Shown here: in pieces, positions 5,125 to 26,000 of the stretch
Layout: every line of letters starts with the position of its first letter
How positions within the stretch are numbered: the first letter of the stretch is position 1
From: Opitutales bacterium
GTDB taxonomy: Bacteria; Verrucomicrobiota; Verrucomicrobiia; Opitutales; PNEW01
Assembly: GCA_965219535.1 (NCBI GenBank)
Contig: CBDCNV010000002.1
Location: 1,020,001-1,052,000 of the forward strand
Length of the DNA: 32,000 nt
Reading direction: 5' to 3'
Made by a program: the position numbers and the translations under genes
Notes under the pieces: generated by a model
Seen by the model: the letters and a program-made list of their open reading frames with translations, nothing else
What the model was told of the DNA's origin: nothing
The model's database searches: none

Positions 5125-7692
5125 ATGATGATTCATGAGAACAGTGAGAACGGGAAAATGGATTCATTCCTCGAGAAATTATTTTGCGAAAAGGTAGAAC
5201 GATTTACCCTCTCTAATGGCCTGACAGTTTTGCTTAAAGAAGAGCACGCAAATAAAATTGCTTCAGTCCAAGTCTGGGTAAAGACGGGCAGTATTTATGA
5301 AGGTTCACTCCTGGGCGCGGGGGTGTCTCACTTTCTGGAACATATGCTTTTTAAAGGGACGGAAAAACGTTCAGGAGAGGAACTAACCCGTGAGATTCAA
5401 GCTGCGGGTGCGTATATCAATGCCTATACCACCTTCGACCGGACGGTCTATTATATAGAGACACCGAGTGAAGAGACGGGATTAGCTATCGATATTCTTG
5501 CGGATGCAGCGCTTTGCTCAATTTTACCGGTCGAAGAGGTAGCAAAAGAGCGAGAAGTGATCCTGCGCGAAATTGACATGGGAGAGGACGACCCCGATCG
5601 TCAAGTATCTCGCGCGCTGTTTAGAAACGCATTCCGGGAGCATCCTTATCGTTACCCCGTCATTGGACACCGTGAATTATTTGATACACTATCAAGAGAA
5701 GATTTGTTAACTTACTATCAAGCCCGGTATGTACCCAACAACATGGCTCTCGTTGTGGTTGGTGATTTTTGCTCAAGCGAGCTACGAGATGAAATTGAAA
5801 AGAACTTTGGTTCCCACGCGCGAAAACGATTGGCGATTCCTTATGTGCCCGATGAGCCCTTACAGCTCAGCATGCGTGAAGAGCATCTAGAAGGTGAAGT
5901 CAATGTCTGCCGCGGCAATATTGCTTTTCGCATACCCGGATTAACACATGGGGATACCCCCGGATGCGATATCCTGGCGGCAATCCTGGGGAGTGGATAC
6001 AGTTCTATTCTTTGGCAGCAGCTACGCGATAAAAGAAAAATTGTACATTATATTGACGCCTCATGCTGGAATCCTGGCAACGTAGGTTTTCTGAGCATCA
6101 ATTACGTTTGTGATCCAGATAAACAAGCGGGGGCCCAGAGCGCGATCCTCGATGAACTGACTCGATTGGGAAATGAAGGAATTCGTTCGGAACAGGTCGA
6201 TAAGGCAGTGCGTCAAGCGGTTGTAGGGGAGGTCAGTATACGCAAGACTGTAAGCGGTCAGGCCTCTCGTCTGGGAATGGCAGAAATAGTGGTTGGCGAT
6301 TTAGGATATCCACGCAATTATATTGAAAAGATTCATAAACTAGGACCAGAAGAAGTCAGCGAGTTGATAGGAACTTATTTCAGAAATGACCGTATGACCG
6401 CAGTTTCTTTAAATGCGATGGGTTCGAATATATCATCTGAATCAGTGCTCACCGGAAGTAAGGAGTCACCTGATTTTAAAACGCATACTCTCGATAACGG
6501 TGTAAGGATTGTCTTTCAACCGGACAACAAGCTGCCAAAAGTACATATAAAGATTGTAAGCTTAGGTGGAGCAATTTACGAAAATGATTCGCAGCGTGGA
6601 ATTACCAGTCTCTTGTCCACTCTTTTAACGCGCGATACGCGCAATCGCAATGCGGAGGAGGTAGCCGAAACGATTGAGAGAGTGGGGGGATCATTCAATG
6701 AATTTATCGGCGATAATACATTTGGGCTCTCGATGGAGGTTATGTCTCAAGATTATAAACTCGCATTGGAATTACTTGATGAAGCGCTCCATGGGCCAGA
6801 CTTTGATGTCAATACATTCAATACTGAACTAGCTGCTCAGATTGCGATGATTAAAGAAGAAAACGATGAAATTGTATATTATGGGCTCAGAAAGCTAAGA
6901 GAATTATTTTATTGTGATCACCCATTCAAAATAGACTCATCGGGTTCTGAAGAAACATTAGAGGATTTAAATGTCAGTGAGATTAGCGATCATTATGATC
7001 GACTAATCAGGGGGCGAAATATTGTTGCAGCCATAGTCGGAGATTTTGATCCTGAAAGCGTAATACCCGAGTTCGAATCACTACTTAATAAATTTCCGGA
7101 AAGGGATTTTATTGAAGTAAAAAAGTCCTTTTCTGGACCATCAAAGTCAGGATTATTTGAGTTTACCATACCACGCGAACAGGCTGTTGTTTTTCAGGCT
7201 TATCAAGGTGCGGGTATTTTATCGGATGACATATATGTCAGTAAAATACTTGATGAGCTTTTCAGTAATATGTCCGGCCGTCTTTTCGAACGGGTTCGAG
7301 AAAAACGCAGTTTGGCGTATTTTGTAGGGGCTCAGTGTATCGTTGGTCTAGATCATGGCATGTTTTATCTCTACGCGGGAACACATCCTTCGAAATACAA
7401 TGATGTAATAGACGAATTTAATCAGGAAATATCACGTGTGAAGTCGGGGGGAGTGAGCGAAGATGAATTGCGGCGTGCGCAGACGCGGTTGAAAGCGCAA
7501 AAACGCATGGGCATGCAGACGATTGGCGCTCGTGCGACGATGGTGGCCCTGAATATAATATATGGGAAACCGGCCAACGAATGGAAGCAGTATGACGAGC
7601 GTATTCAAGCAGTCACCCTGGATGACTTAGTGAATTTTTCCAATCAGTATTTTAATGACGACCGAAAGATTAATTTGGTGGTGAAACCCTAG
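5125..7692 (+). CDS. M16 (pitrilysin/insulinase) family zinc peptidase, fused active plus inactive halves
   Basis: The N-terminal half has the inverted zinc motif HFLEHMLFKGT (HxxEH) and the downstream Glu region EREVILREI. The second half (from about aa 450) repeats the fold without HxxEH. An alternative start is Met at 5155 (MDSFLEKL). Confidence 0.85.
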   Translation: MMIHENSENGKMDSFLEKLFCEKVERFTLSNGLTVLLKEEHANKIASVQVWVKTGSIYEGSLLGAGVSHFLEHMLFKGTEKRSGEELTREIQAAGAYINAYTTFDRTVYYIETPSEETGLAIDILADAALCSILPVEEVAKEREVILREIDMGEDDPDRQVSRALFRNAFREHPYRYPVIGHRELFDTLSREDLLTYYQARYVPNNMALVVVGDFCSSELRDEIEKNFGSHARKRLAIPYVPDEPLQLSMREEHLEGEVNVCRGNIAFRIPGLTHGDTPGCDILAAILGSGYSSILWQQLRDKRKIVHYIDASCWNPGNVGFLSINYVCDPDKQAGAQSAILDELTRLGNEGIRSEQVDKAVRQAVVGEVSIRKTVSGQASRLGMAEIVVGDLGYPRNYIEKIHKLGPEEVSELIGTYFRNDRMTAVSLNAMGSNISSESVLTGSKESPDFKTHTLDNGVRIVFQPDNKLPKVHIKIVSLGGAIYENDSQRGITSLLSTLLTRDTRNRNAEEVAETIERVGGSFNEFIGDNTFGLSMEVMSQDYKLALELLDEALHGPDFDVNTFNTELAAQIAMIKEENDEIVYYGLRKLRELFYCDHPFKIDSSGSEETLEDLNVSEISDHYDRLIRGRNIVAAIVGDFDPESVIPEFESLLNKFPERDFIEVKKSFSGPSKSGLFEFTIPREQAVVFQAYQGAGILSDDIYVSKILDELFSNMSGRLFERVREKRSLAYFVGAQCIVGLDHGMFYLYAGTHPSKYNDVIDEFNQEISRVKSGGVSEDELRRAQTRLKAQKRMGMQTIGARATMVALNIIYGKPANEWKQYDERIQAVTLDDLVNFSNQYFNDDRKINLVVKP

Positions 7693-7700
7693 ACTTCGGT

Positions 7701-7720
7701 CTCCCCTTACGACGGGGGGA
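7701..7720. terminator. Weak GC hairpin between convergent genes (possible bidirectional terminator)
   Basis: The sequence ctCCCCttacgacGGGGgga lies in the 33-nt gap between the stop at 7692 (+) and the stop at 7726 (-). The stem is only 4-5 bp and there is no clean U-tract. Confidence 0.25.
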
Positions 7721-7725
7721 AATAT

Positions 7726-8721
7726 TCAATTCTGGATACCGACGAAAGCCCCACCATGCTCGTAGGTCAATTCACGCATGAGATTGGCAAACTTTAATCC
7801 TGTCTTGGTATAGTGGCGCTCAAATTTAACCACATGCGGGAAGCCAATGGCATTAATCGTGATAGCTCGATTACCTTCTTCATCTTTAGGGTTTAGTTTA
7901 TCGATACGTGTTAGCACTTTACTCGCGGTATCTGTATATTCATCACCAAAAACATAAATCCCTATTTTTTTATCCGGATCGTCGGGATCGAGAAAGACTT
8001 TAACAGCCTTCGTGATGCCCGGCACGGGGTTGCTCTGACTGTGATGACTGTAGAATGCTAAGGCACGACCTATTGCCGAGCGTACTGTGGGGCTATCGGG
8101 TATCCACTGACCGGCTGTGGGCCGCAGGATATAATTGCCATCGGCATCTAAAATCTGGATCGCGGTAACAATCGGATATATTTCGAGAGTTTCTTGAACC
8201 TTACTTATTACAATATTCCAGATTCTACCGGAACGGGGATCTCGCATACTTCCCGAGGTATCAAGAATAAAAATAAGATGATTGCTTTCCACCGGTACCC
8301 CGATGGGAAGTTCGGATTCAATTTGTTCGAGTTCAACTAATTGCTGTTGGGCGTCCACGTATTGTTGCATATCGTCAATTTCTACAAGCAAGTTCTCTTT
8401 ACCGTAAAGGGATTCTTTGATTTTCTTCTCTAAAAGTTCGATTTCGACTTTCATTGCCGCGACCGTATCTTTTTCAAGTCTCAGCGCGTCTTTTTTCTTT
8501 TTATTTTCGAGAGTTAAATGAATAGTTTTACCATTAATGGACTCGAGTTCCGTCATTCTTTCCTGGTAAAGTTTGAATAGGGTATCGCGGATATCTCTGA
8601 TTACGAGTCGTTCGGAACCCAGAGAGATTACAAATAATAGGATGATGGCTCCAAACCCACAGCTGATACAGTCGAGGAATGAGAGGCTGAAAATAGATAG
8701 ATCGCGTCTTGATTTTCTCAT
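7726..8721 (-). CDS. Membrane-anchored coiled-coil vWA protein with an ExbD/TolR-like Asp-containing N-terminal TM helix (intact MIDAS)
   Basis: The N-terminus is MRKSRRD-LSIFSLSFLDCISCGFGAIILLFVI: a basic patch, then a TM helix with Asp17 (codon 8671-8673). Aa ~40-135 are heptad-rich (K/E/L). The vWA domain has the MIDAS motif LIFILDTSGSM (DxSxS, nt 8248-8262), plus SNPVPGI and IYVFGDE. Its ATG overlaps the upstream stop (ATGA at 8718-8721). Confidence 0.8.
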   Translation of the reverse strand: MRKSRRDLSIFSLSFLDCISCGFGAIILLFVISLGSERLVIRDIRDTLFKLYQERMTELESINGKTIHLTLENKKKKDALRLEKDTVAAMKVEIELLEKKIKESLYGKENLLVEIDDMQQYVDAQQQLVELEQIESELPIGVPVESNHLIFILDTSGSMRDPRSGRIWNIVISKVQETLEIYPIVTAIQILDADGNYILRPTAGQWIPDSPTVRSAIGRALAFYSHHSQSNPVPGITKAVKVFLDPDDPDKKIGIYVFGDEYTDTASKVLTRIDKLNPKDEEGNRAITINAIGFPHVVKFERHYTKTGLKFANLMRELTYEHGGAFVGIQN

Positions 8722-9782
8722 GTATCAGGCCAGGTTCTTGAGGGAGAAATAAAAGACCCTTTGGTCTTATTGGCGAGGAGCCAATAGCGAGCCGGCGCGT
8801 CGGGGTCGCGATAACCGGAGGGTAAGAGAATTGTATTAATGGGAACACCGCTGAGAATTTGTTGTTCCGCCGCGGTGTACATATTTAATCGTTTAATCGG
8901 ATCATTACCATCGCCGCTAACGGAATCGCTTAATGTGGGCAAACCGTCGACGATGAGAATGATATTATCGGGAAGTGGATATATCTGCCGTGACTCCCAT
9001 AATGCCCGTTCCAGATTGGCTCCTCCCTGAGGGACGACCTGTTTCATCTGTGTCAGCACTTCGCTTATCGTTTCGCGATCATCGAGATTAAGCCATTGGT
9101 TGCGAAAATCTTCAACCATGGGGTGTGGTTCCCGGTTGAAATAATATAGCTGAAACTGGGTAGGTGGACGCATCGAACCCAGGAGCCATTCGACGGAACG
9201 CAGTACGCGTTGCCATTTAGGCGCTTGTCGTTTTTCCTCATCTGTATCTCCAAGTCGTTCAAGAATGGCATCCGTATCATCGTCAAGCATTCCTCCAGAT
9301 GCCTCGACGATGATTAATACGCGTTCCCCGTCCATTTTAAAATCGGTTAGATATTGTCTTTTTATATAATTAGGTATGGGTACAGGCACCTCTTCTTCAA
9401 TTGTCGGGATTTCATCAAATTCGCCGAGAAGGGTATCCTTAGACTCTTCAAGCTCGGCAAGTAAGGTGAGGAGTAACATTAAATCGTCATTTTTATCCTC
9501 AAGAATTTTTTCGAGCGTGATTTTTTCGGCGGTCAACTTCGACAATTGTGATTCGTTCTCTTCAAGAAGGCTGGCGAGAAGACGAAGGCGTGCGTCTTCA
9601 GCTTGAATATTTTTTTGTAATTTACCGAGATCAACACTTACATCAGAAAGTTGCTCATTACGGGCTTCTGATTTTTTTCCACTCGTGAGAACAAAAAGCA
9701 GAATGACAGCACCGAATCCGCAACATATGCAATCGAGGAAACTGACGCTAAATGCTTGAACTTGTCTCTTCCTTTTCGGCAT
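8718..9782 (-). CDS. Paralogous membrane-anchored coiled-coil vWA-like protein with an ExbD/TolR-like Asp TM helix (degenerate MIDAS)
   Basis: The N-terminus is MPKRKRQVQAFSVSFLDCICCGFGAVILLFVL, with Asp17 at codon 9732-9734. This is nearly identical to the TM segment of the downstream paralog. Aa ~40-125 are coiled coil. The vWA-like core reads VLIIVEASGGM (ExSxG in place of DxSxS) and IILIVDGLPT. Confidence 0.75.
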   Translation of the reverse strand: MPKRKRQVQAFSVSFLDCICCGFGAVILLFVLTSGKKSEARNEQLSDVSVDLGKLQKNIQAEDARLRLLASLLEENESQLSKLTAEKITLEKILEDKNDDLMLLLTLLAELEESKDTLLGEFDEIPTIEEEVPVPIPNYIKRQYLTDFKMDGERVLIIVEASGGMLDDDTDAILERLGDTDEEKRQAPKWQRVLRSVEWLLGSMRPPTQFQLYYFNREPHPMVEDFRNQWLNLDDRETISEVLTQMKQVVPQGGANLERALWESRQIYPLPDNIILIVDGLPTLSDSVSGDGNDPIKRLNMYTAAEQQILSGVPINTILLPSGYRDPDAPARYWLLANKTKGSFISPSRTWPDT

Positions 9783-9859
9783 GATCGCTGCTTTGTAATC
9801 CGAGGTTTTAGGTTTTCGTTAAGCCTGAACTTCAATGCTTAATAGAGGAGTGTAGACTC

Positions 9860-11365
9860 TCAAGAGGGATTATGAATAAGGAGCAATTCGACCAATGGTT
9901 CCTTATTTCCCAGGGTGATTGAATCACCGGTTGCTAAATATTGTGTGTTGGCGACAGGTTGTTTGTTGAGGCGTGTGGTGTCGGCATATTCCGTTTCGAT
10001 TTTTAAACCCTCGCGCGTAAAGTAAATGTGGCAGTGTTGTTTGGCAATGGCCTTATTATCTGAATTAATGCGGAGTCCATTTTGGTCGTTATCAATTTCG
10101 GTCCCTATGATAAAATGATCACCACTCAGGGGAACGGAGATTCCTTCATATACGATATGGGTTGGAAGGGGATGGGCTTTCGGGCGTGATTCCTTTGAGT
10201 CGACAGCGGCATCAGCCGGTAGTGCATTCTCCTCAGGATTTGAAACAGGAGTGTCAAATACTGATTCGTCAATGGGTATTTGAGTAAGAACAGGTGTCTG
10301 ATCAAGCGATTCCACGAGTGGGGTATCCACCGCAAAGGTGGCGCAACCTTTCGCCGCTGAAGCAATATCTAAATGAATGAGATTAAAATCCCTCCCTCCC
10401 TTTAGCTTATTTGAAAGACCAGGTACACGAGAGGCACGATCTGTCAGGTAGAGAGAGCAGGGTCCATCTCCAACAATTGAAGATGCTTTGCTTACGACCT
10501 GAACAATGGAATCGTTGACTGTATCGAGATCTCTTGCGAGGGAATCAAGAGTAACAACTATTTGGCGTGGTCGTTTTAGTCCACCCAGTTCGAGAGAACA
10601 TTCAGGTGCATAGCGTAATTCATCGATGAGGCGCCGTATTTGATTATAGAATGCCTGCTCGGTTTTTCCATCGTGGGTAACATCAAAAGCGGTCTGGCTT
10701 AAGAAGCGATTGGCTAGTTTTGGCATTAATTCATTTATAATATGAGCATAGCCCAAATCTGAGAAACGGACGATATGTTGTCTCTCAATTACCTCACCTA
10801 CTCTAATCACAGTTACGACGATAGTATATTGATGAATGTCAAGGTGGAGGGCAGTAAAAGGGCGTGTATCAATTGAAGGGAGATGGGGAATGATTGAAGC
10901 GCAGGCCATATCGACGATCCCGGCTAAAGGGATTTTTAAATCACGCGCCATGCTTAAGATTAACCCGATTTCCAATTCTTCCTCGTCATCCTCAATAGCG
11001 ATGTAATGACCCGGCAGAGCAAAAACAACTTTTTCAGCAGGGAGACCACTCCCATTTAATCGCGACCATAGGTGTTTTAAATGATGGAATGCGAGTTCGG
11101 AAAATAATGGATTCTTTCCTCCTGCAGAAATAATCGAGGGGCGAAGAGAGAGTTGATCCCAACAAGTATCAGTGACAATTCGCGGATGAATTCGTGAGAG
11201 GTTTTCAGCTTCCCGGCCGGCAAGGTAGTCGCTCCCATTAAAATAAATGAAACCCGGACTCGACGGGCCATCCGTTTCAAGTGGGACTAATCGCTCCTGC
11301 TCACCTACACGCGCCGCGGCAAGAAATCCTTCATCACAAAATTCCAGGCCGAGTGTATTAATCAT
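9860..11365 (-). CDS. Degenerate Hsp70/actin-fold (ASKHA-like) protein with a C-terminal FHA-like domain
   Basis: The Hsp70-like order of blocks is kept but the nucleotide motifs are eroded. GLEFCDEG replaces GIDLGTTNS, VVFALPGHY replaces ViTVPAYF, ALHLDIHQYTIVVTV replaces DLGGGTFDV, and LYLTDRASRVPGL replaces vLvGGstRiP. The C-terminal ~90 aa (HFIIGTE...IAKQHCHIYF...TTRLNKQPV...LATGDSITLG) have FHA-like spacing but lack the canonical GR/SxxH/NG residues. Confidence 0.6.
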   Translation of the reverse strand: MINTLGLEFCDEGFLAAARVGEQERLVPLETDGPSSPGFIYFNGSDYLAGREAENLSRIHPRIVTDTCWDQLSLRPSIISAGGKNPLFSELAFHHLKHLWSRLNGSGLPAEKVVFALPGHYIAIEDDEEELEIGLILSMARDLKIPLAGIVDMACASIIPHLPSIDTRPFTALHLDIHQYTIVVTVIRVGEVIERQHIVRFSDLGYAHIINELMPKLANRFLSQTAFDVTHDGKTEQAFYNQIRRLIDELRYAPECSLELGGLKRPRQIVVTLDSLARDLDTVNDSIVQVVSKASSIVGDGPCSLYLTDRASRVPGLSNKLKGGRDFNLIHLDIASAAKGCATFAVDTPLVESLDQTPVLTQIPIDESVFDTPVSNPEENALPADAAVDSKESRPKAHPLPTHIVYEGISVPLSGDHFIIGTEIDNDQNGLRINSDNKAIAKQHCHIYFTREGLKIETEYADTTRLNKQPVANTQYLATGDSITLGNKEPLVELLLIHNPS

Positions 11366-11392
11366 TATCTGAGGGAGAAAAAATTCAGGTTA

Positions 11393-12262
11393 TCAAGTAA
11401 TCGACATCTCGCTTTCCTCCTTAAAAGGGATCTTCATTACAGCGAGGAGTTGATTTCTGCAGTATTCTTCGGTTTCGAGTATGAGACTTTCTTGCCGGGA
11501 CTGCAAAAGGTGAATGAAATACATAAGAATAATACTGAGAAAAAGGGCAATCAACGTAGAGTTAAAAGCGAGACCGAGAGAATCAGTCACGCCTTGGATG
11601 TTGCCCCTTATCGCCTGGTCTGCCTTGGTCAATGCTTCTCCGATACCACGCACGGTACCGATAAATCCGACCGACGGGATCGCCCATGCCACGTAACGGA
11701 CGAGGGATAGCTCAGAATCCAGCCGGTCCGCTTCTGATTCTGATATTTCTCTCACCGCCTGAGAGACATCTTGAATGGAGTGCGAAGATTGAAACCTTCG
11801 AAGGGCGGTAAGCACGACACGGGGTAATAATTTATCTGCGTATTGCGGTATATTGGCGAAACGCGTTTCCACTTCTTTTGAGTGGGCAAGTGCTTCTTCA
11901 GGAATGATCCTTTCCCCCGTTTCTATATCCAATAAATTTTCATTTAAAATCGATTTTTCCTGCCAGACTTGGCGAAGTTTATAGATAACAATCATCATCG
12001 CCCAGACCATTAGGGTGAAACAGACCTGTTGCTCGTAATCTTTAATAATAACAAAAATTGTGCGTTCAGGTACGAAACCGGTATCCGATTGCTGAGCGGC
12101 TTTTAATGTATTGGCTATTTGGATTTTCGCGGCTTGCGCACGAATACCTAATTTGGGTAATTCATAGATAAAACCGATTAAGACGATGGAAATCAAAAGT
12201 CCGGCAAATTGGTAAATATTCTCTCTGGAAAAGAGGCTACTTTTAGAATTATTAGCTGCCAT
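11393..12262 (-). CDS. MotA/TolQ/ExbB-family proton channel (stator A-subunit-like)
   Basis: Four predicted TM helices, with a ~90-aa cytoplasmic insert between TM2 and TM3. The C-terminal signature is WAIPSVGFIGTVRGIGEAL...GLAFNSTLIALFLSIILMYF, matching the ExbB/MotA pattern aPllGLlGTV.Gm...AL.tTa.GL. It is first in a four-gene minus-strand operon. Confidence 0.8.
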   Translation of the reverse strand: MAANNSKSSLFSRENIYQFAGLLISIVLIGFIYELPKLGIRAQAAKIQIANTLKAAQQSDTGFVPERTIFVIIKDYEQQVCFTLMVWAMMIVIYKLRQVWQEKSILNENLLDIETGERIIPEEALAHSKEVETRFANIPQYADKLLPRVVLTALRRFQSSHSIQDVSQAVREISESEADRLDSELSLVRYVAWAIPSVGFIGTVRGIGEALTKADQAIRGNIQGVTDSLGLAFNSTLIALFLSIILMYFIHLLQSRQESLILETEEYCRNQLLAVMKIPFKEESEMSIT

Positions 12263-12594
12263 GGTAAATATTACTCGATCGGGTGACCTTATGAGTATCG
12301 TAAAAGAAATTATATTTCGTTAGATCGCATGCGGAAAGTTTAGTGCCAAAAAAGTTAATTTTTTACCGCCAATGATCGATCTCAGATGTCATAAATTGTT
12401 AATAATAAACGTTGACCCACGGAACATGTCAATTTTTCCCTTGTCTGTTAAGCTATTATCTTTTCAATTGCCAGTTCGTCTAGTTTTTACTTGAAAAAAG
12501 AAGGTTTCAGAGATAGAGTTTATGCGCTTATCTGCCATTAATAAATCAACTCGAAAATAGTTGCCTAAGCGATGAAATTGGAGGGGAATAATTT

Positions 12595-12603
12595 TGTTAT
12601 AAT
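12595..12603 (+). promoter_or_regulatory. Extended -10 promoter element (TGnTATAAT) upstream of the lipoprotein genes
   Basis: There is an exact TGTTATAAT at 12595-12603, 68 nt upstream of the ATG at 12671, in a 408-bp AT-rich divergent intergenic region. No good -35 is present. The sigma-factor consensus in this lineage is assumed, not known. Confidence 0.3.
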
Positions 12604-12670
12604 ATGCTCATATCAAATAATCCAATTAAGGAGCAGACAAGGGGGTAATTAAATTTTCTTAAAGCTTGTC

Positions 12671-13243
12671 ATGACTATTCATACTCGAGAAATAAAATTT
12701 CTATTTAATATGCTAATACTGGTTGTCGTTACCAGCGGTTGCACAACATCAACAGGTTCAACTACCTCACGTGGTGCAATGAAGGGAGCAATGGCAGGTG
12801 CTACGGCGGGGGCGATCATCGGTCATCAAAGTGGTGAAACTGGTGAAGGGGCAGCAATCGGCGCAGCGGCCGGTGTTGTCATCGGTGGTTTAATTGGTGC
12901 CGCGAAAGAAGCCCAAGAGCGAAAAGATCAAGAGACGCTCGCCCAGCAAAGAGCACATCAGCAGGAATTATCGAAAATGCGTAAAGCGAAGGCTGAAGCC
13001 CAAGCCATGCGCGCTAAACAGTTAGCTATCGCCGAAGGTATGAGGATTACAGAAACTGAAGTTACCGAAGCAGAGATTAGGGCACGCAATGCGGAAAAAC
13101 GCCTGAAAGAACTACAATCAGAATTAGAATCAGCACTTTCACGCAGTCAGGCTATCGGTCAAGCTGAAGAACGAAAATTATCGGCCGAAGAAGAAATACG
13201 CAGACTTGAAAGAGAACTGGAAGAATTAAGGGCAAAAAATTAG
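12671..13243 (+). CDS. Lipoprotein with a glycine-zipper segment and a C-terminal charged coiled coil
   Basis: Signal peptide plus lipobox (LILVVVTSGC). Glycine zipper GAMKGAMAGATAGAIIGHQSGETGEGAAIGAAAGVVIGGLIGAA. The last ~110 aa are E/K/R/A/Q-rich and heptad-like. An alternative start is Met at 12710. Confidence 0.6.
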   Translation: MTIHTREIKFLFNMLILVVVTSGCTTSTGSTTSRGAMKGAMAGATAGAIIGHQSGETGEGAAIGAAAGVVIGGLIGAAKEAQERKDQETLAQQRAHQQELSKMRKAKAEAQAMRAKQLAIAEGMRITETEVTEAEIRARNAEKRLKELQSELESALSRSQAIGQAEERKLSAEEEIRRLERELEELRAKN

Positions 13244-13316
13244 CTTTTAGGAATACATTAATTTTAAAAATTTAGTCATACACTGATCGAGACGTTATTT
13301 AAAAAAGGAGTAGAAC

Positions 13317-14039
13317 ATGCGTGAACATAAAATTGAATTCACACCCTTTATTACACTTCTGGCCGTGCTGGTACTTGCGGGTTGTTCATCGACCTATTCC
13401 TTCAAAGTTGACGCGATTAATAATCCCGATCCAAATGTTAAAGAACTTAAATCTTATAAAATTGTCAGTTCAAACTCCCAGATTAACGAGGACGATTTAG
13501 AGTTTCAGGAAGTTTCCCAATACATTAAAACTGCCTTATCGGGCAAAGGGTACTATGAAGCGCCAGCAATTGATAATGCCGATATGGTTATCGATGTTTC
13601 TTATGGGGTAAGCGAACCCCAGACTGATTTTAAAACTAAGACCAGCCCTGTTTATGGTCGGTCTAGCGGAGGGTACAAAACGATCTCGACACCAGTTATT
13701 GATAGAAATGGTAACGTCAGGTATGTGAATAGTACCGTTTTTACCCCCGCCCGGGTTGAAATGATCGGGGTGCAAGAACAGATAGTCCCGATAATCACAT
13801 ATGAAAAGTATTTGCGGATGACGTCACGTGACAATCGCGATGTAGAAAATAATGAGAGCCCGACCCAGGTGTGGAGCATTTATGTTAAGAACAAAGATGA
13901 AAGTGAGGATTTAAGAAAGTATGTTCCCCTCATGGCAGCGGCGGCAATACCTTATGTGGGTGAGAATACAGAAAATCAACAGGAAATTAAAATCAAGGAA
14001 GAGGATGACATCGTTGATTTTGTAAAGAAAGGTTTATAG
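13317..14039 (+). CDS. Lipoprotein (DUF4136-like)
   Basis: AAGGAG lies 7-12 nt upstream of the ATG. The signal peptide has the lipobox LVLAGCSS. Organisation after the Cys resembles DUF4136 lipoproteins; this family call is from memory. Confidence 0.55.
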   Translation: MREHKIEFTPFITLLAVLVLAGCSSTYSFKVDAINNPDPNVKELKSYKIVSSNSQINEDDLEFQEVSQYIKTALSGKGYYEAPAIDNADMVIDVSYGVSEPQTDFKTKTSPVYGRSSGGYKTISTPVIDRNGNVRYVNSTVFTPARVEMIGVQEQIVPIITYEKYLRMTSRDNRDVENNESPTQVWSIYVKNKDESEDLRKYVPLMAAAAIPYVGENTENQQEIKIKEEDDIVDFVKKGL

Positions 14040-14085
14040 TAGTCTATACGATTTAGCTATCAGCGAATCTGAATACTTTCTAGTA

Positions 14086-14116
14086 AACGAACCCATCTAC
14101 GGGGTTCGTTTTTTTT
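14086..14116 (+). terminator. Rho-independent terminator
   Basis: A perfect 9-bp stem, AACGAACCC (14086-14094) pairing with GGGTTCGTT (14102-14110), with a 7-nt loop. It is followed by a T-run through 14116, about 47 nt after the stop at 14039. Confidence 0.75.
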
Positions 14117-14249
14117 ATGACGTAAACGGCCGATGACCGTTAGTTTCCCTGTGGAGCAAAGAGCTGATATTCCCCTTTGATATTCGGATTGTTTATTATC
14201 GCTAAATTAGTAATGAATATAAATTCTGTAGATAATTGAAATTAATTTT

Positions 14250-14750
14250 ATGACAAAAGTTGAGATTTTTGATGTAGTTGACGATGAGGATAAAGTGCTC
14301 AGACAAGAGACGCGTTCAGAAGTCCACCGACAGAAGTTAAAGCACCGCGCCGTGCATATTTTGATTTTTAATGAACAGGAACAGCTTTTTTTGCAGAAAA
14401 GATCTCTGCTCAAAGATAATTTCCCAGGATTATGGGATTCTTCAGTGGCTGGACATCTCGATGCAGGTGAAGATTATGACGCAGCTTGTATACGCGAAGT
14501 GAATGAAGAACTTAATGTGACATTCGAAGACCCACCTGAAAGACTCTTCAAAATTGATGCATGTCCAGAAACGGGATATGAGTTTGTCTGGGTCTATCGC
14601 GGTTTCCATGAAGGGCCGTTTAATCTTAATCACGAGGAAATCGATTGCGGTGAATGGTATAATCCTGACGAGGTAAAGCGATGGGTGGAAGATAAGCCAA
14701 TGGATTTTGCCACCGCCTTTGTCCTGATCTGGAAATTATATTATGGGTGA
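14250..14750 (+). CDS. Nudix hydrolase, IDI-like subfamily
   Basis: The Nudix box is GHLDAGEDYDAACIREVNEELNV (GX5EX7REUXEEXGU with G replaced by N). PGLWDSSVAGH aligns with E. coli Idi PGVWTNSVCGH, but the catalytic Cys is Ala. Confidence 0.75.
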   Translation: MTKVEIFDVVDDEDKVLRQETRSEVHRQKLKHRAVHILIFNEQEQLFLQKRSLLKDNFPGLWDSSVAGHLDAGEDYDAACIREVNEELNVTFEDPPERLFKIDACPETGYEFVWVYRGFHEGPFNLNHEEIDCGEWYNPDEVKRWVEDKPMDFATAFVLIWKLYYG

Positions 14751-19233: not shown

Positions 19234-20005
19234 ATATTCTAGTTCTCATGGGGAAAATAACGATAATTGAAAGGATTTCTTTTGAAAGATTTCCAATCGA
19301 CGGTCAATCACGACGTTAAATCCTTATAACCTGATTTAATGTCAAAATTATATCATTTTAAGGGGTTTTCCTAACTTTCCTTTGCGTGTTGACTGAAAGG
19401 GCATTTTTTTTCAAAAATAAGCTTTAATAGTATAAAGCGGTATATCTTAATTAATAAAAGGGAAAAATGTTCTTTAAAAAAGAACAATGATTCTTATTGA
19501 ATAATTATAGTTTAGCCACATAAATCATGATCATCAGCAATTATGTTCTTCTTAAACGTGCAACTATTTTTTTAATAGACAGAATGAATAACGATTGTTG
19601 GTATCTACTAAACCTGCCAAGTGTGGCATGAATTATCAGAGGATTGCCGAAGGCATTCTTTTGATGGCTGTAAAGGCATTTTAGATTCCAGTCTTCTATA
19701 ATCGTCAATATAATCTTGAAAGATACGCGAACATATACGCCCAGATGATCGTATTTGATCACCCGATAAATATCTTTCCAAGAACCCAAAACTTGGATAA
19801 TTATACACCGAAAAATGCAGCAAAAGGTGGCCGTGATAAGCGATCATTTGATGCATGATAAGCAGCGTTATTTTTTTAGATTTTATCTAGACAGGAGAGG
19901 GTTCATTATCCATTAAGATAGTTGAATAATCAGTATGAAAAGCTTGTATAGAAAGTATGCCCTTAAAAAGGGCGTGCCTCATATTTTATTTTTGGAGTCA
20001 GCCGA

Positions 20006-23000
20006 ATGATTAACCAAGGGAAATGCCCTATCGCGATTATTGGAATCGGTTGCAGATTTCCTGGTGGAGCAACTGATTCTGCTTCATTCTGGAAGTTTTT
20101 ACGCGACGGCGGCAACGCAATCGTCGAAGTCCCTGAAGATCGTTGGAATCTTGATCAATATTATGACCCAAATCCCAATTTAGCGGGCAAAATGATCACT
20201 CGCTGGGGAGGATTCCTGAATCCTATTGACCAGTTCGACGCTAAATTTTTTGGCATTTCCCCCCGTGAAGCCTTGAGGATGGATCCTCAACAGCGATGGC
20301 TGCTGGAAGTTGCCTGGGAAGCTATGGAAGACGGAGGTCAATCGCCCGATCGGATGGCGGGGACACGGACGGGAGTATTCGTTGGCATATCGAGTAATGA
20401 TTATGCGAATATTCAGATGAAAAGTCCTAATGATGTTGATGTGCATACCAACAGTGGGAGCACGCTTAGTATTGCATCAGGAAGGATTTCCTACCTCTTT
20501 GATTTAAAAGGCCCGAGCCTCTCGGTCGACACCGCCTGTTCATCGGCACTGGTTGCTGTAAATCTTGCCTGTAATAGTATCTGGGATGGACAGTGTGACA
20601 CCGCCCTTGCGGGTGGAGTCAATGCACTGATTACGCCCGATTCAACGATCGGATTCAGTAAAGCTTCCATGCTCTCACCTGATGGCAAGTGTTATGCCTT
20701 TGATGACCGGGCAAATGGTTATGTTCGAGGAGAGGGAGCAGGAATCATTGTTCTCAAACCGCTCGATCAAGCGCTCGAGGATAAAGATCCAATTTATTCG
20801 GTAATTCGCGCAAGTGTCGTTAATCAAGATGGTCGCACAAGCGCGATGACCGTACCCGGTCAAATTTCCCAGGAAGCCATGCTTTATGAGGCTTATAAAC
20901 AAGCGGGAATTTCACCGCAAAAAGTTTGCTACATGGAAGCGCACGGTACGGGAACACCGGTTGGCGATCCAATTGAAGTTCTGGCTTTAGGTAATGTTTT
21001 AGCTGAAGGAAGAAAAGCAGGTGAGGAGTGCGTGATCGGGTCGGTTAAAACGAATATTGGCCATTTAGAATCTGCTTCTGGCATCGCTGGATTAATCAAA
21101 GCTGCTTTAATCCTGAAATATGGGGAGATTCCTCCAAATCTGAACTTTGAAAATCCTAATCCAAATATACCTTTTGAAAAACTTCGATTACGGGTTCCGA
21201 CAAAGTTGGAACCGTTGAATGGCAATGGATCGGGTCCAGCTGTAGTCGCCGTTAATTCTTTTGGCTTTGGAGGGACAAACGCCCACGTGGTGTTAGAAGA
21301 AGCACCTGCGGCAGCGAAAAGGCGTAAAAAAATTAAAAAAGGTAATTCCTCTGAGCCCTACCTTATCCCTCTCTCGGGAAGAGGACAACAGTCATTAAAA
21401 AAATATGCTGAATCTCTGGTAGAATTGATTTCAGGTCAATCGAATGGCAAGGAAGTGTCGCTTCCAGATTTAGCGCACACTGCGAGTATCGGCAAGGGCC
21501 ATCATGACCATCGCCTGGCGCTGGTTGCTGTTTCGGAAAATGAAGTCGTAGAAAAGCTCAACGACTATCTGGCAGAAACTAAGGTCAAGGGCCTTGTCAC
21601 TGGAAGAGCTAAAACAGAAAATAATAGCGAAATTGTATTTATATTTACCGGTCAGGGTTCGCAATGGTGGGCAATGGGCCGGGAGCTATTGAAAAATGAT
21701 CCGATCTTTAGGAAAAAAGTTGAAAAGTGTGACCGACTTTTAAGTAAATATGCTTCCTGGTCTCTAATTAAAGAATTATCACGGGATGAGGCGAGCTCTA
21801 GAATAGACGATACAGCAATCGCTCAACCGGCCATTTTCGCCTTACAAATAGCTTTAGCTGATTTATGGAAGGCGAGAGGGGTGACACCGACTGCTGTGAT
21901 AGGGCATAGTGTAGGTGAAGTTGCTGCCGCTTACTGTGCGGGTATTTACACGCTCAATGATGCGATTAGAATTATTTATCACCGCAGTCGTTTACAAGGG
22001 ACGACTCGTGGTTCGGGCCGTATGGTGGCGGTTGCTATTTCGTCCGAAAAGGCCAAGGAATTAATTCAAGGTTACGAAAATCAAATTGCGATAACCGCTA
22101 TTAACAGTCCCGGGTTGGTAACCTTAGCAGGGGAAACTGAAATTTTAGAAACTTTAATCGAGCCGCTTGAAAAAGAACAGGTATTCGTTCGTTGGTTGAA
22201 TGTAGACTATGCTTTCCATACCCACAAAATGGATCCTATTAAGGACGAATTAATTCAAGTCCTAAAAGGGATCAAGACGCGCACCGCGAAAATCCCATTT
22301 TATTCTACAGTTACTGGTGATGTTCTCGACGGTAAGAAACTGAATGCCGGTTATTGGTGGCGCAATGTCAGGGAAGCCGTTCTTTTTGGTCCCGCGATTG
22401 AAAAAATAATGACTAAGGATCATGAGCTTTTTCTCGAGCTTGGGCCCCATCCGTCTCATTCCAGTTCCGTTATGGAGTGCCTGGCACATATTGGTAAAAA
22501 AGGAATGGTCCTGCCATCCTTGCGGCGCAAAGAATCGGATCACCAGATCATACTCGAATCTCTGGCTGCTCTATATACCCAAGGCTATCCCATAAATTTA
22601 GATGCGTTATACAGCAAGGTAGGTAACCTTATTCATCTACCTTCTTATCCCTGGGAGCACGAACGATTCTGGTTAGAATCGGCCATTTCCGAGGACCACC
22701 GATTAGGTTCAATTATTCACCCACTGCTCGGTAAAAAATTGAATACCCCAAGTCCAACTTGGGAATGTGAATTGGACCCTCTAGCCCTGCCTTATCTGGC
22801 AGATCACCGACTTCATGATTCCATGGTTTTTCCCGGCTCTGCCTATGTGGAGACCGCGCTTGCGGCGCTTAATGAGCTCTATCCAAATGAATCTTATGTT
22901 ATTGAGGATGTAAAAATCCTTAAGGGTCTGTTTATGTCAGAAGAAGACCTCATTACTCTTCAATTTACCTGTGATGAATCTGATGATTCATTTAAAATTT

Positions 23001-26000
23001 ATAGTTCAACTTACACCTCTACCGGAGAATGGGAAGTTCACGCCGAAGGTCGGTTTCAGAAGCTCTCGCTGCGCGAACCCGGCAAGTTGGACCTTGAACA
23101 TTTAAAATCCACTTTGGAAGACGAGATAGATCACGCCAAAATTTATTCAGATTTCGATGATGTAGGTTATCAGTTTGGTCCCTGTTTTAAAGAAGTACAA
23201 AAAATATGGAGAAAAGACGGCGAATCCTTAGCCGAGATACAAGTTCCAGATGCGATTCTAGAAAATATAGATAAATATTATTTCCAACCTGCGGTCCTGG
23301 ATGCCTGCTTTCAAGGGGGCAAGGAAACAAGATTTAAGGATGAAAAGAGAAAAGCGCGTGATAATTTTTTCATGCCCATTGCTCTCAAACGCTGTCGTTT
23401 TTATAAAAGTCCAGGTACGCATCTCTGGTGCCACACGTTATTAATAAATGACGAAGAAGACCGGGTTGAATACGACCTTGAGATTACTGATGACGATGGC
23501 TCAATCATCGCGGAGATCAAAGGTTTTCGTGTTCAACGTGTAGATCAGTCCGAGTCAAAAACAGAGGATGATTTTGAAAACTGCCTCCTCATGTTTAAGT
23601 GGGCGCTCTCAGGATTACCGGGAGCACGTCTTGACCCAGTCGAACTCCTGAGTCCCACCCAGATCGTAGAAAAATTAGTTCCTGAAATTACCCCCAACTA
23701 TGAAAAATATCAACTAGAAGGCTATGTTGAGGACTTCATTCCTCGAATGGAAGATCTGAGCTTACATTTTGTTCTCACGGCCTTGATCAAGCTGGGTTGG
23801 AGCCCGGAAAAGGGTGATCTGGTATCGAAAGAAGGTTTAATTGAACAGTTGGGTATAAAGGAGGAGCATTTTCGTTTATTTAATCATTCTCTTTTTGACG
23901 TTTTGATAAATGAAAAGGTGGTTCGGGCGACACCAAAAGGAGAGTGGGAGTTTTCAAAATTTCCAGAGAAACAGAATTTAGATAAACTTTGTAAAGATCT
24001 AAAATCAGATTTCCCCCACCTTTCAGCGGAAATGGCATTACTGATCGATTGTGGTTATGTCTTAGCCGAAGTCCTTTCTGGAAAGACCGATCCCCTTGAT
24101 GTTGTTTTTCCAGCTGGCGATCAGGGAAAACTTGAAAAGTTTTATAAGTTTTCTTCAGATTTTCAGGCCTATAACAGTATGTTTCAGACGGCTATTTCCT
24201 CGATCGCTAAAAATTTTTCGGGAAGCAGGCCACTTCGCATTTTGGAAATCGGAAGTGGAACGGGTTCATTGACTGAAAGTTTGCTTCAAGTATTACCGGC
24301 TGATCGTACTGAATATTTCTTTACCGACATTTCGCCATTGTTCACGTCAACAGCTAAGGAAAAATTTAAGGAATATGATTTTGTTGAGTACCAGCTTCTC
24401 GATATTGAAAAATCACCGTCTGAACAGAATTTTGACCTTCATTCTTATGATTTAGTATTAGCCACTAATGTTCTGCACGCCACTGCTGATTTAAAACAAA
24501 CTTTACGTCACATCAATCAACTGATGACCGAAGAGGGCATATTGATGTTTCTCGAGGTCACCTCACGTCGTCTTTTTCTTGATCTGGTTTTTGGTCTGCT
24601 ACCCGGTTGGTGGAGATATACCGATACTGATTTAAGGTCTACTTCTGCATTGCTGTTGCGCCCGGAGTGGGAAAATCTGCTCAATGAAGTAGAATTTCGT
24701 GACGTAAAATCTTTTGTCAATACACATCTACAAGACAATTCCGTTCAGACATTATTAATGGCTAATGCTTCTGAACGATTGCTGGAGGAAGAAATGGTTG
24801 AATCCAGCGATGCAGTTGCGAATGAAGATAAATTCTGGTTAATTTTCGCTGATCAAAACGGTCACGCTGAGACTCTGTCTAATCATTTGAAAGAGAAGGG
24901 CAGAAATTGTGTGATGATTCACGAAGGTGAAAGCTTTGTTCAGGAAAATGAAAACAGCTATAAGATTAATCCTGAGCAGTTGGAAGACATGGAGAAGCTA
25001 TTTGCTTCCCTCAACTTTGAGCGGAATGTTATGCAGGGCGTAATTCATATGTGGAGCCTAGATCATCCCACCGTTGATATGACTACACCTGAAAACCTCG
25101 AAGAGGCTCAGCAATCAGGTTGTCTGAATGTATTAAATTTGATTCAAACGCTTGTTAAATACGAACCATCACCGGCACCACGTGTTTGGTTGATCACCCA
25201 GGGTGCTCAGTCGGTAAGGGAAAACGAATCAATCGAGCGCATTGTTTCGGCTCCGTTAATGGGTCTCGCTCGCGTGGCAAACAATGAGCATAATGATTAT
25301 CATTGGACAGTAATAGATCTGGAAACATCAACTACTCCGGATGACCTGGGATTTTTGGTCGACGAAGTCTTTTCTTCAGACGACGAAATTGAAATCGCAT
25401 ACCGCGGTGAGGAGCGTTACGTCAATCGTCTGGAAAAGGTTTTGACCGATGAACTTCCCGCGCGTACGAAGGATGCGGTGAGACACGACGGGGTACTTCC
25501 GTACCGTCTGGAAATACCAACCCCTGGCATTTTAAATAATCTGCAATTGAATGAGACACAGCGCAGATCTCCAGATTCGAAGGAAATCGAAATTATAGTT
25601 GAGGCGGTTGGATTGAATTTCCGTGACGTGATGAAAGTCATCGGTATGTATCCCGGTAATAGCAGGGATTTGAAGTGGCTGGGTGACGAATGTTCAGGGA
25701 CCATTGTTACGGTTGGTAAAGATGTCACTGAATATCAGGTTGGAGATGATGTAGTTGGTATGGTACCCTATTGCTGCCGCTCTTATGCGACGGTTAATCA
25801 TGCATTAGTTTTTCCCAAACCGTCCGATCATACTTTCGAGCAAGCGGCAACATTACCGATTGTATTCCTCACTGCCCATTACACATTGAATTATCTGGCC
25901 CATCTCCAAAAAGGAGAGAAAGTACTTATTCATGCGGGCGCAGGCGGTGTCGGTCAGGCTGCGATACAAATGGCTAAGCATTTGGGAGCTGAAATTTTTG

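Follow-up and report, generated by a model that had tools for sequence, protein, structure and literature searches.

Which envelope process might be energized by a TolQ-like channel that is encoded without a recognizable ExbD, TolR or MotB partner and side by side with two membrane-anchored proteins carrying domains of the von Willebrand factor A (vWA) type? This question is raised by a cluster of four genes in a 32,000-nucleotide stretch of the genome of an Opitutales bacterium (Verrucomicrobiota; assembly GCA_965219535.1, contig CBDCNV010000002.1, positions 1,020,001 to 1,052,000), in the following called the window. Judged from sequence, this cassette is a member of a published TolQ-like/vWA family, and its four-gene-plus-lipoprotein form is a variant of which the extra components are undescribed within the literature searched. 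That the TolQ-like channel and the two vWA proteins, each contributing a trans-pore helix, are indeed assembled as a motor is favoured with moderate confidence.

The four genes are located on the minus strand in the following order:

11393-12262, minus strand: TolQ/ExbB/MotA-family channel gene, 289 aa
9860-11365, minus strand: gene for a protein resembling the Hsp70 nucleotide-binding domain (NBD) and FHA, 501 aa
8718-9782, minus strand: vWA1 gene, 354 aa
7726-8721, minus strand: vWA2 gene, 331 aa

The channel gene is followed after 27 nt by the Hsp70-like/FHA gene and this gene after 77 nt by vWA1, and the vWA2 start codon and the vWA1 stop codon form a 4-nt overlap of ATGA type which suggests translational coupling; the four open reading frames (ORFs), both gaps and the overlap are exactly as given in an earlier note made on this DNA from the letters alone. 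As the gene order is repeated in the genomes of 80 Opitutales species and at 10 loci of other lineages, the ORFs are to be considered real genes and not chance ORFs. The ORF list, Pfam and PADLOC disclose no ExbD/TolR/MotB, TonB/TolA, Pal/TolB or Zorya effector genes in the window, which bears out the earlier statement that TonB/TolA, Pal/TolB and ZorC/D/E are lacking. None of the cassette proteins matches PF02472 or OmpA, with no PF02472 match of either vWA protein at E<=1, and no further ORF of at least 80 aa fits as a B subunit. Equally, no ExbD/TolR/MotB gene is present inside the cassette in approximately 90 related loci. ExbD homologues occur among 84 fetched loci at just three positions, all unrelated to the cassette, and a canonical ExbB-ExbD-TonB set in one of the loci (L001) is separate from the cassette at a distance of 3 kb.

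The channel protein matches the Pfam family MotA_ExbB (PF01618, E=2e-16, residues 144-265) above the curated cut-off, and its nearest solved sequence is TolQ (8odt/9kpz, E=0.003). Since its scores with the NCBIfam tolQ and exbB models are far under the equivalog cut-offs, the protein is a divergent family member, neither TolQ nor ExbB proper. Two threonines are located in its second and third transmembrane (TM) segments:

11642-11668, minus strand: channel TM2 motif GFIGTVRGI, containing T203
11543-11569, minus strand: channel TM3 motif AFNSTLIAL, containing T236

Both are aligned by HMMER to the TolQ threonines of GTVWGI and IATAIG (T145/T178), and each is conserved to at least 98% in 72 channel orthologues, so that the MotA/TolQ/ExbB-type channel recognized in the earlier note is confirmed by family match and pore residues alike. 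The protein is presumed to be the pentameric A subunit. As a side aspect of annotation, the public call of a 583-aa MotA_ExbB protein in L001 (5634-7385) is probably an over-extension; homology to the window channel is confined to 6531-7358, and the 5' part of the call overlaps an opposite-strand homologue (5784-6119) of a 190-aa lipoprotein gene which is described below.

Both vWA proteins open with a basic patch followed by a single TM helix of the pattern FS[VL]SFLDCI[CS]CGFGA[VI]ILLFV, in which the Asp is residue 17, as the earlier note had read directly from the sequence:

9684-9752, minus strand: vWA1 TM helix, residues 11-33 (Asp17 codon 9732-9734)
8623-8691, minus strand: vWA2 TM helix, residues 11-33 (Asp17 codon 8671-8673)

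The Asp is retained by all 133 motif-bearing ORFs, by all 166 classified helices of the loci, by all 20 helices of the ten distant loci and, with one noted exception (P0177, Ser), by nearly all of the roughly 150 cluster representatives; its lack in orthologues had been named in the earlier note as a refuting result. Comparison of the window with the distant loci gives 69% identity for the helix (residues 11-30) of vWA1 and 77% for that of vWA2, versus 29-30% for the rest of each protein. A helix so much more conserved than the remainder, with an invariant Asp, does not display the behaviour of a plain signal anchor. No His occurs within the pore helix, and a TolA/TonB-type SHLS/His motif is equally absent from it.

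A further residue of the helix is Cys21, positioned four residues past Asp17 (codons 9720-9722 in vWA1 and 8659-8661 in vWA2, minus strand) in the motif F-L-D-x-x-x-C-[GA]-[FL]-G-A. An equivalent Cys is present in every family member seen (including P0146-P0292), in Verrucomicrobia as well as Gammaproteobacteria, and is retained in P0177 although the Asp of this protein is replaced by Ser. In contrast, ExbD, TolR and MotB are without Cys four residues after the pore-helix Asp.

Beyond the helix, the AlphaFold2 (AF2) model of vWA2, with a predicted local distance difference test (pLDDT) of 76, shows one helix for residues 16-125, disorder in the linker (122-143) and an alpha/beta fold for residues 148-325, and the metal-ion-dependent adhesion site (MIDAS) is intact in vWA2 and degenerate in its first motif in vWA1:

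8347-8676, minus strand: vWA2 long helix, residues 16-125 (AF2)
7747-8280, minus strand: vWA2 vWA domain, residues 148-325 (AF2, Foldseek)
8248-8262, minus strand: vWA2 MIDAS motif DTSGS (intact DxSxS)
9291-9305, minus strand: vWA1 degenerate first MIDAS motif EASGG
8934-8951, minus strand: vWA1 retained DG motif VDGLPT

In a Foldseek search of PDB, the vWA2 domain is matched at E about 1e-5 and TMt about 0.6 by vWA and integrin I domains, including the Bacteroides aerotolerance-related (Bat-type) vWA membrane protein 4jdu, and DTSGS is kept in nearly all cluster representatives. The C-terminal domains of vWA1 and vWA2 are homologous (hhalign 86%, E=5e-6, 173 columns) at an overall identity of the two proteins of 20%; vWA1 furthermore has a conserved C-terminal WPD motif, and its proteobacterial orthologues possess precomputed Pfam VWA_2 matches. 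A PDB sequence search with the full vWA profile yielded coiled-coil noise and one marginal vWA match. Over 74 loci, the spacing between Asp and MIDAS is near constant, with 142-143 residues in vWA1 and 137-140 in vWA2, which suggests that the stalk, about 13 nm in length and continued by a linker, resembles a ruler. Covariation of the stalk lengths of vWA1 and vWA2 (Pearson 0.52, Spearman 0.26) is driven by a few distant loci and ignores kinship, and therefore length constancy alone is used here. The helical stalk of about 90 residues and the vWA domain of both paralogues, as claimed in the earlier note, are consequently confirmed, for vWA2 by AF2 and Foldseek and for vWA1 by sequence alignment and, in the case of its C-terminal domain, by hhalign.

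The vWA2-type head is not restricted to the cassette. Opitutaceae proteins of 700-800 aa annotated as 'M56 family metallopeptidase', that is, BlaR1-like sensor proteases (P0161, P0166, P0187, P0196, P0199, P0205, P0207 and P0223), end with a domain close to the vWA2 head (profile positions 136-332, E down to 2e-72 for P0161), so that the same type of head serves a signalling protease.

Could the two proteins be ordinary signal-anchored periplasmic vWA proteins of the BatA/BatB kind, merely co-expressed with a channel whose B subunit is encoded elsewhere, the TM Asp being incidental? The match to 4jdu is in line with such an explanation, as is the lack of detectable profile similarity of the helices to ExbD/TolR. 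A profile of vWA residues 1-40 retrieved zero PDB chains at E<=10, in a test of low power for a short helix, and hhalign of the vWA N-termini with five ExbD/TolR N-termini (three Opitutales ExbD from fetched loci, and E. coli ExbD and TolR) gave a probability of 0.65% over 5 columns ('LSFLD' on 'TSLID'). However, a helix that stands out in conservation, with its invariant Asp and the Cys four residues on, is not what such an anchor would exhibit, vWA and channel genes are linked in about 90 loci of two phyla without a B-subunit gene nearby, the MoxR and DUF58 genes of Bat operons were not found, and the 4-nt overlap suggests translational coupling. The Bat-like explanation is consequently regarded as very improbable. 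The link of the helix to ExbD/TolR is one of position, context and function and is not demonstrated as sequence homology; from the ExbD/TolR-like helix of the earlier note, the conserved Asp and the context have withstood examination, while homology could not be shown (profile search empty, hhalign as above).

The combination of a TolQ homologue with paired vWA proteins has been described as the TPH-vWA family in Mol Biol Evol in June 2025 (PMC12204202, section 8, Fig. 4c-d). The members of this family occur 'predominantly in heterologous pairs' beside tolQ homologues without tolR/exbD, possess a trans-pore helix which resembles that of TolR/ExbD and in which an Asp is conserved, and are distributed 'predominantly throughout Proteobacteria and Verrucomicrobia' (PMC12204202). 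The paired vWA proteins were proposed as the dimeric partner of a TolQ-like pentamer, and in AF3 models of one member the two Asp are enclosed by the Thr ring of the pentamer; the account, with Idiomarina loihiensis as the reference organism for Fig. 4c-d, is computational only, and the function is stated to be unknown (PMC12204202). The designation of the system as undescribed in the earlier note can thus not be upheld, since the partnership of paired Asp-helix vWA proteins with a TolQ-like pentamer had already been proposed. The window cassette agrees with this description in the adjacency of a tolQ-family gene, in the window and in all related loci with enough flank, in the absence of tolR/exbD/motB from the cluster, in two heterologous TM-tethered vWA proteins with the conserved helix Asp and without the His motif, and in the conserved Thr pair (T203, T236) of the channel. 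Homology to the family was judged via members from Woeseia, Halioglobus and Methylophaga, and Idiomarina loihiensis was compared by description only.

The accessory components are a different matter. The sole remark on an accessory gene concerns a TPR gene linked to the other, TolA/TonB-like vWA family of Fig. 4a (PMC12204202), and the text of that paper mentions neither an Hsp70/DnaK/actin-fold or FHA partner nor Gly-zipper/coiled-coil and DUF4136 lipoproteins, PEGA/FGE-sulfatase or kinase genes. Equally, the architecture is not mentioned in articles on conflict systems (PMC7159879) and on MotAB evolution (PMC12505986). Neither the system nor its vWA proteins are covered by a model or a name in Pfam, NCBIfam or PADLOC, and the RefSeq label of the vWA proteins is 'hypothetical protein'.

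The vWA2 family is large, with more than 6326 proteins at 90% clustering; clustering at 50% identity gives 2283 clusters at E<=1e-3, of which 281 reach E<=1e-30. The nearest named genomes to the window cassette are Opitutales, and the named distant clusters are from Gammaproteobacteria, namely Woeseia/Woeseiaceae, Halioglobus and Methylophaga (E=1e-48 to 1e-71). The scan of genome contigs used Opitutales-specific helix motif patterns and hence returned Opitutales alone; other phyla were reached via representatives of the 50% clusters and exact-sequence look-ups, providing the ten non-Opitutales loci (L085 and L087-L095). In all ten, the order channel, vWA1, vWA2 is invariant. As hidden Markov models (HMMs) of the Opitutales vWA1 and vWA2 each select their own orthologue in the distant loci (E 1e-47 to 1e-93), the vWA1/vWA2 pair is older than the split of these lineages. 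Within Opitutales, the cassette occupies a conserved chromosomal position in hundreds of species genomes with a divergence that parallels that of neighbouring housekeeping genes, and its inheritance looks vertical. Base composition is even throughout the window, and tblastn of vWA2 against 72,556 plasmids gave no match.

The fourth gene of the cassette encodes a protein that was modelled by AF2 with a pLDDT of 85.5 in three parts:

10265-11365, minus strand: NBD-like part, residues 1-367 (AF2, Foldseek)
10178-10264, minus strand: disordered linker, residues 368-396 (AF2)
9875-10159, minus strand: FHA-like all-beta domain, residues 403-497 (AF2, Pfam sub-threshold)

The first part matches DnaK/Hsp70 NBDs in PDB by Foldseek (E=1e-19 to 1e-17, TM-score 0.72-0.81, root-mean-square deviation 3.5-4.5 Å), and the last part has sub-cut-off Pfam matches to Yop-YscD_cpl (3.8e-5) and FHA (1.5e-3, 19.3 bits versus a cut-off of 20.7), which together sustain the Hsp70/actin-fold plus FHA-like reading of the earlier note. 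A Pfam HSP70 (PF00012) match was not obtained for this protein. Compared by sequence reading with Hsp70, the glycine-rich phosphate loops are replaced, GLEFCDEG standing for GIDLGTTNS and LHLDIHQ for DLGGGT, whereas an R-x-P-G-L-like stretch after the equivalent strand is shared; the substrate-binding domain is absent, the C-terminus being the FHA-like beta domain. In this domain, the canonical phospho-threonine-binding Arg, Ser and Asn are unrecognizable when read against the textbook consensus, in contrast to the orthologue of Woeseia (L090), which has a significant canonical FHA domain (3e-12, 47 bits, SRKH...GTFLNG). The protein is best described as Hsp70-NBD-like/FHA-like, with uncertain competence for nucleotide and phosphopeptide binding.

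Its gene is present in every Opitutales locus that covers the position, always between the channel gene and vWA1. Among the non-Opitutales loci it is found at the same position in five of ten (L089-L093, HMM E 6e-24 to 4e-46) and is absent, by HMM and locus inspection, from L085, L087, L088, L094 and the Methylophaga locus L095. As the search with an alignment of this protein added nothing to the 25 proteins retrieved by the single sequence, the breadth of the family was judged from the loci. The gene is a recurrent but optional fourth gene. Co-conservation of the cassette thus holds across phyla for the channel and both vWA genes and not for the Hsp70-like/FHA gene; a fixed four-gene operon, as postulated earlier, is contradicted by its absence from half of the distant loci and also by two upstream lipoprotein genes which are co-conserved with the cassette.

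The presence of this protein raises the alternative of a trans-membrane sensing and signalling device, in which the heads bind a ligand, ring conformation or ion flow changes and the Hsp70-like/FHA protein, together with kinases where present, reads out the signal. A divergent Hsp70 NBD without substrate-binding domain looks regulatory, the operon of Woeseia (L090) combines the FHA domain with a Ser/Thr kinase gene at its beginning, and the vWA2-type domain constitutes the extracytoplasmic C-terminus of the M56 proteases described above. Mechanical work, on the other hand, would be more in keeping with a long stalk of fixed length, with conservation of the Asp and of both Thr, and with a coiled-coil lipoprotein that is co-conserved; furthermore, the cytoplasmic Hsp70-like/FHA protein is missing from half of the distant loci, and the FHA-like domain of the window is devoid of the canonical binding residues. 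A signalling device is therefore considered an unlikely explanation, and the motor remains the preferred one.

On which partner might such a motor act? Upstream of the channel gene, two divergently oriented lipoprotein genes (12671-14039, plus strand), overlooked in the earlier note, are part of the conserved block:

12263-12670: intergenic region of 408 bp from which the channel operon (minus strand) and the lipoprotein operon (plus strand) diverge
12671-13243, plus strand: Gly-zipper lipoprotein, 190 aa, lipobox LVVVTSGC
13317-14039, plus strand: DUF4136-type lipoprotein, 240 aa, lipobox LAGC
14085-14111, plus strand: terminator-like hairpin with a 10-bp stem and a T run, closing the two-gene lipoprotein operon

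The 190-aa protein combines a membrane-associating glycine-zipper segment (residues 34-83) with a C-terminal coiled coil of about 110 residues and matches Gly-zipper_Omp (1.2e-8) and also Gly-zipper_OmpA, YMGG and Rick_17kDa_Anti in Pfam. In essentially all Opitutales loci in which the flank is long enough, its gene is the immediate upstream neighbour of the channel gene, in divergent orientation. The 240-aa lipoprotein, with a match to Pfam DUF4136 (1.6e-7, 32.3 bits versus a cut-off of 32.8), has one to three tandem paralogues in related genomes and is conserved beside the 190-aa lipoprotein gene in most Opitutales loci; no DUF4136 lipoprotein was seen in the ten non-Opitutales loci. The lipoprotein genes belong to the conserved block in Opitutales, as opposed to the other flanking genes (nudix, glycosyltransferase, M16 peptidase and p144), which are kept just in the closest relatives. 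In distant L088, a homologue of the 190-aa lipoprotein is found in the same divergent position (HMM 5.5e-25), and in Woeseia (L090) a Gly-zipper, coiled-coil and OmpA-domain protein is encoded directly after vWA2. The 190-aa lipoprotein is accordingly a candidate outer-membrane partner.

The intergenic region of 408 bp is presumed to be a shared promoter region; a promoter scan gave weak sigma-70-like matches at no more than chance, credible small ORFs are absent from it, an Rfam scan of 7500-14300 was without match, and a terminator scan remained at chance level save for the hairpin at 14085-14111. The neighbours of the cassette in the window are lipoprotein, nudix, glycosyltransferase and M16 peptidase genes. 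Two ORFs in other frames, one of 104 aa (8534-8848, minus strand) that overlaps the vWA1/vWA2 junction and one of 86 aa (11450-11710, plus strand) that overlaps the channel gene, are unsupported and were treated as spurious. Further away, at 19967-32000 on the plus strand, an open frame of more than 4011 codons with a ketosynthase-type start motif (IAIIGIGCRFPGG) runs past the right edge of the window and probably encodes a giant polyketide synthase.

The proteobacterial loci are equipped differently. Upstream they usually add a lipoprotein of about 400 aa, a TPR protein (about 500 aa, TM-anchored, with a PEGA-like C-terminus and, in Woeseia, a kinase fusion), a PEGA/FGE-sulfatase protein and a small acidic secreted peptide. 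The TPR protein of the proteobacterial operons has a homologue (E about 1e-40 to 1e-52) in 37 Opitutaceae loci, about 565 aa long, equally TM-anchored and with a PEGA-like beta domain at the C-terminus; it is encoded 2-4 kb beyond vWA2 on the opposite strand (for example, in L009, L011, L012, L014 and L059:10944-12641) and is absent from this window. In eight of ten non-Opitutales loci, the gene directly upstream of the channel gene specifies the membrane protein with PEGA and FGE-sulfatase domains (about 670 aa).

This position of an FGE-sulfatase gene may recall the gldKLMN operon, in which the genes of the GldLM motor are immediately preceded by that of GldK/PorK, a lipoprotein of the FGE-sulfatase family. 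The cassette might accordingly be a surface-transport, secretion or gliding motor resembling GldLM/PorLM or AglRQS, with vWA arms by which an adhesin or polymer of the outer membrane or the surface would be moved or loaded. The location of L088 adjacent to pel exopolysaccharide genes, and the function of vWA adhesins in myxobacterial gliding (cited in PMC12204202), would fit. Against it stand the lack of the FGE-sulfatase/PEGA gene from the conserved block of the window and its close relatives, the absence of a linked secretin, beta-barrel or adhesin gene and the nature of the channel, which is PF01618 TolQ-type and not GldL-type. Such a motor for transport, secretion or gliding is given a small chance, comparable to that of a signalling device.

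Two loci deserve a separate description. In L088 (1-5832), the three-gene cassette with the Gly-zipper lipoprotein is located directly after pel-type exopolysaccharide genes, which encode a PelF-like glycosyltransferase with DUF3492, PelG, and TPR and HEAT proteins. In L002, a syntenic relative with 85% identity, genes for an FGE-sulfatase-domain protein (199 aa) and for a Ser/Thr kinase (553 aa) are situated about 9 kb from the cassette (19496-20996), in a region that corresponds to the sequence just past the left edge of the window. In Woeseia (L090), a PEGA/FGE-sulfatase protein and a kinase are encoded by the operon itself. The proximity in L002 may be a coincidence.

Defence against phages, one of the functions considered in the earlier note, would require a Zorya-type conflict system in which a MotAB-like sensor detects perturbation of the envelope and activates a cytoplasmic effector. 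Hsp70-like, vWA and FHA domains do occur in predicted conflict systems (PMC7159879), and the channel has weak PADLOC ZorA matches (best E=2e-5). These matches, however, cover the generic MotA core alone (about 70-95 residues), the other three proteins are without a significant PADLOC match (vWA1 to LmuB at chance level, E=0.057), and no ZorA tail, ZorC/D/E-like nuclease/helicase or effector domain is found. The conserved chromosomal position in Opitutales, the uniform base composition and the lack of a plasmid match, with vertical-looking inheritance and housekeeping flanks, equally speak against it. A defence system was consequently rejected on the PADLOC result and genomic context; of the rival explanations it is the least supported and is hardly to be expected.

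How might the favoured motor then operate? Five of the 289-aa TolQ-like subunits would form a proton-conducting ring in the inner membrane, into which one vWA1 and one vWA2 helix would be inserted in place of ExbD/TolR/MotB, with Asp17 of both helices facing T203/T236. Proton flow would lead to rotation of the ring relative to the vWA dimer. Both helices would run on in parallel, forming a stalk of about 90 residues (about 13 nm) which, together with a flexible linker, would carry the two vWA heads across the periplasm, where they would bind an envelope partner, the best candidate being the 190-aa Gly-zipper/coiled-coil lipoprotein, possibly together with the DUF4136 lipoprotein. The proton-motive force (PMF) would thereby be converted into a pulling or winding force on the outer membrane, as in Tol-Pal, without a separate TolA/TonB adaptor. 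The cytoplasmic Hsp70-NBD-like/FHA-like accessory might dock on the cytoplasmic face of the ring and gate, localize or report on the motor; since the proteobacterial versions possess a canonical FHA domain and an operon Ser/Thr kinase, control is probably phospho-dependent there.

We infer a 5:2 assembly, rotation, a binding partner and a physiological role from such considerations, whereas domains, conservation, orthology and linkage have been observed. Several aspects caution against the proposed motor. Sequence or profile similarity of the TM helix to ExbD/TolR/MotB is undetectable, and its Asp motif is F-L-D-C-I-x-C-G-F-G-A as compared with L-[IL]-D-V-x-L-V-L-L in ExbD/TolR. The 5:2 assembly would be transferred to this cassette by analogy and from a published AF3 model of another member. 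Binding of lipoproteins by the vWA heads is a candidate interaction suggested by gene linkage, and the lipoprotein genes are missing from most proteobacterial loci, where PEGA/FGE-sulfatase and TPR proteins are found instead. Equally, half of the non-Opitutales loci do without the Hsp70-like/FHA protein, which is thus not core to the mechanism. Tol-like force transduction onto a lipoprotein is consequently a tentative extension, clearly less assured than the assembly of the motor as such. Somewhat more doubtful still is a third class of PMF-driven trans-envelope machine, independent of Tol/Ton, in which a vWA1/vWA2 heterodimer of B subunits would itself extend to the outer membrane and grip a SlyB-like Gly-zipper/coiled-coil lipoprotein via its single functional MIDAS, gated from the cytoplasm by a pseudo-chaperone (a degenerate Hsp70 NBD fused to FHA) and, in some lineages, controlled by a Ser/Thr kinase; such a machine would tension the envelope or move lipoproteins and may replace Tol-Pal in Opitutales.

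Ion-driven 5:2 motors such as MotAB, ExbBD, TolQR, GldLM and ZorAB power very different envelope processes, and a field has been opened whenever one more of their output modules came to be understood. With members in hundreds of Opitutales species and in marine Gammaproteobacteria, the TolQ-like/vWA family is extensive, yet described in one purely computational paragraph. The core idea is not new and the cassette is not the discovery of a new class, but a well-defined target with testable partners, for which the accessory genes (Hsp70-NBD/FHA, Gly-zipper lipoprotein, PEGA/FGE-sulfatase, TPR and kinase), the asymmetric MIDAS heads, the fixed stalk and the Asp-x3-Cys motif provide handles. If the proposal holds true, the B subunit of a stator serves as force-transducing arm and ligand binder at once without a TolA/TonB adaptor, and such motors can be coupled to cytoplasmic phospho-signalling.

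In comparison with known systems, the cassette shares with Tol-Pal/Ton the Pfam family of the channel, the equivalents of TolQ T145/T178, a single-pass partner with a TM Asp, a likely trans-envelope reach and a linked lipoprotein, the OmpA-domain protein of Woeseia recalling Pal. In contrast to Tol-Pal/Ton, it is devoid of the ExbD/TolR periplasmic domain, the TolA/TonB adaptor and TolB, and its B subunits are a putative heterodimer of paralogues that carries its own long arm and binding heads. In MotAB/PomAB and GldLM/PorLM, too, the pore helix of the B-type subunit is prolonged into a long periplasmic structure and no adaptor is involved, an example being the long dimeric periplasmic arm of GldM. 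However, the OmpA-like peptidoglycan-binding domain of MotAB/PomAB is absent from the B subunits of the window and flagellar genes are not nearby, and, as compared with GldLM/PorLM, genes of a type IX secretion system are not nearby, vWA heads take the place of GldM domains and the channel is TolQ-type. With BatA/BatB, the sole link is the fold similarity to 4jdu, MoxR and DUF58 genes being absent from the window and related loci. Zorya ZorAB finally shares a MotA-family channel outside flagellar, Ton or Tol context, with weak PADLOC ZorA matches, whereas the 289-aa channel of the cassette is without the long cytoplasmic ZorA tail, and a ZorB-like peptidoglycan-binding domain, ZorC/D/E and a defence-island context distinguish Zorya from the paired vWA proteins described here.

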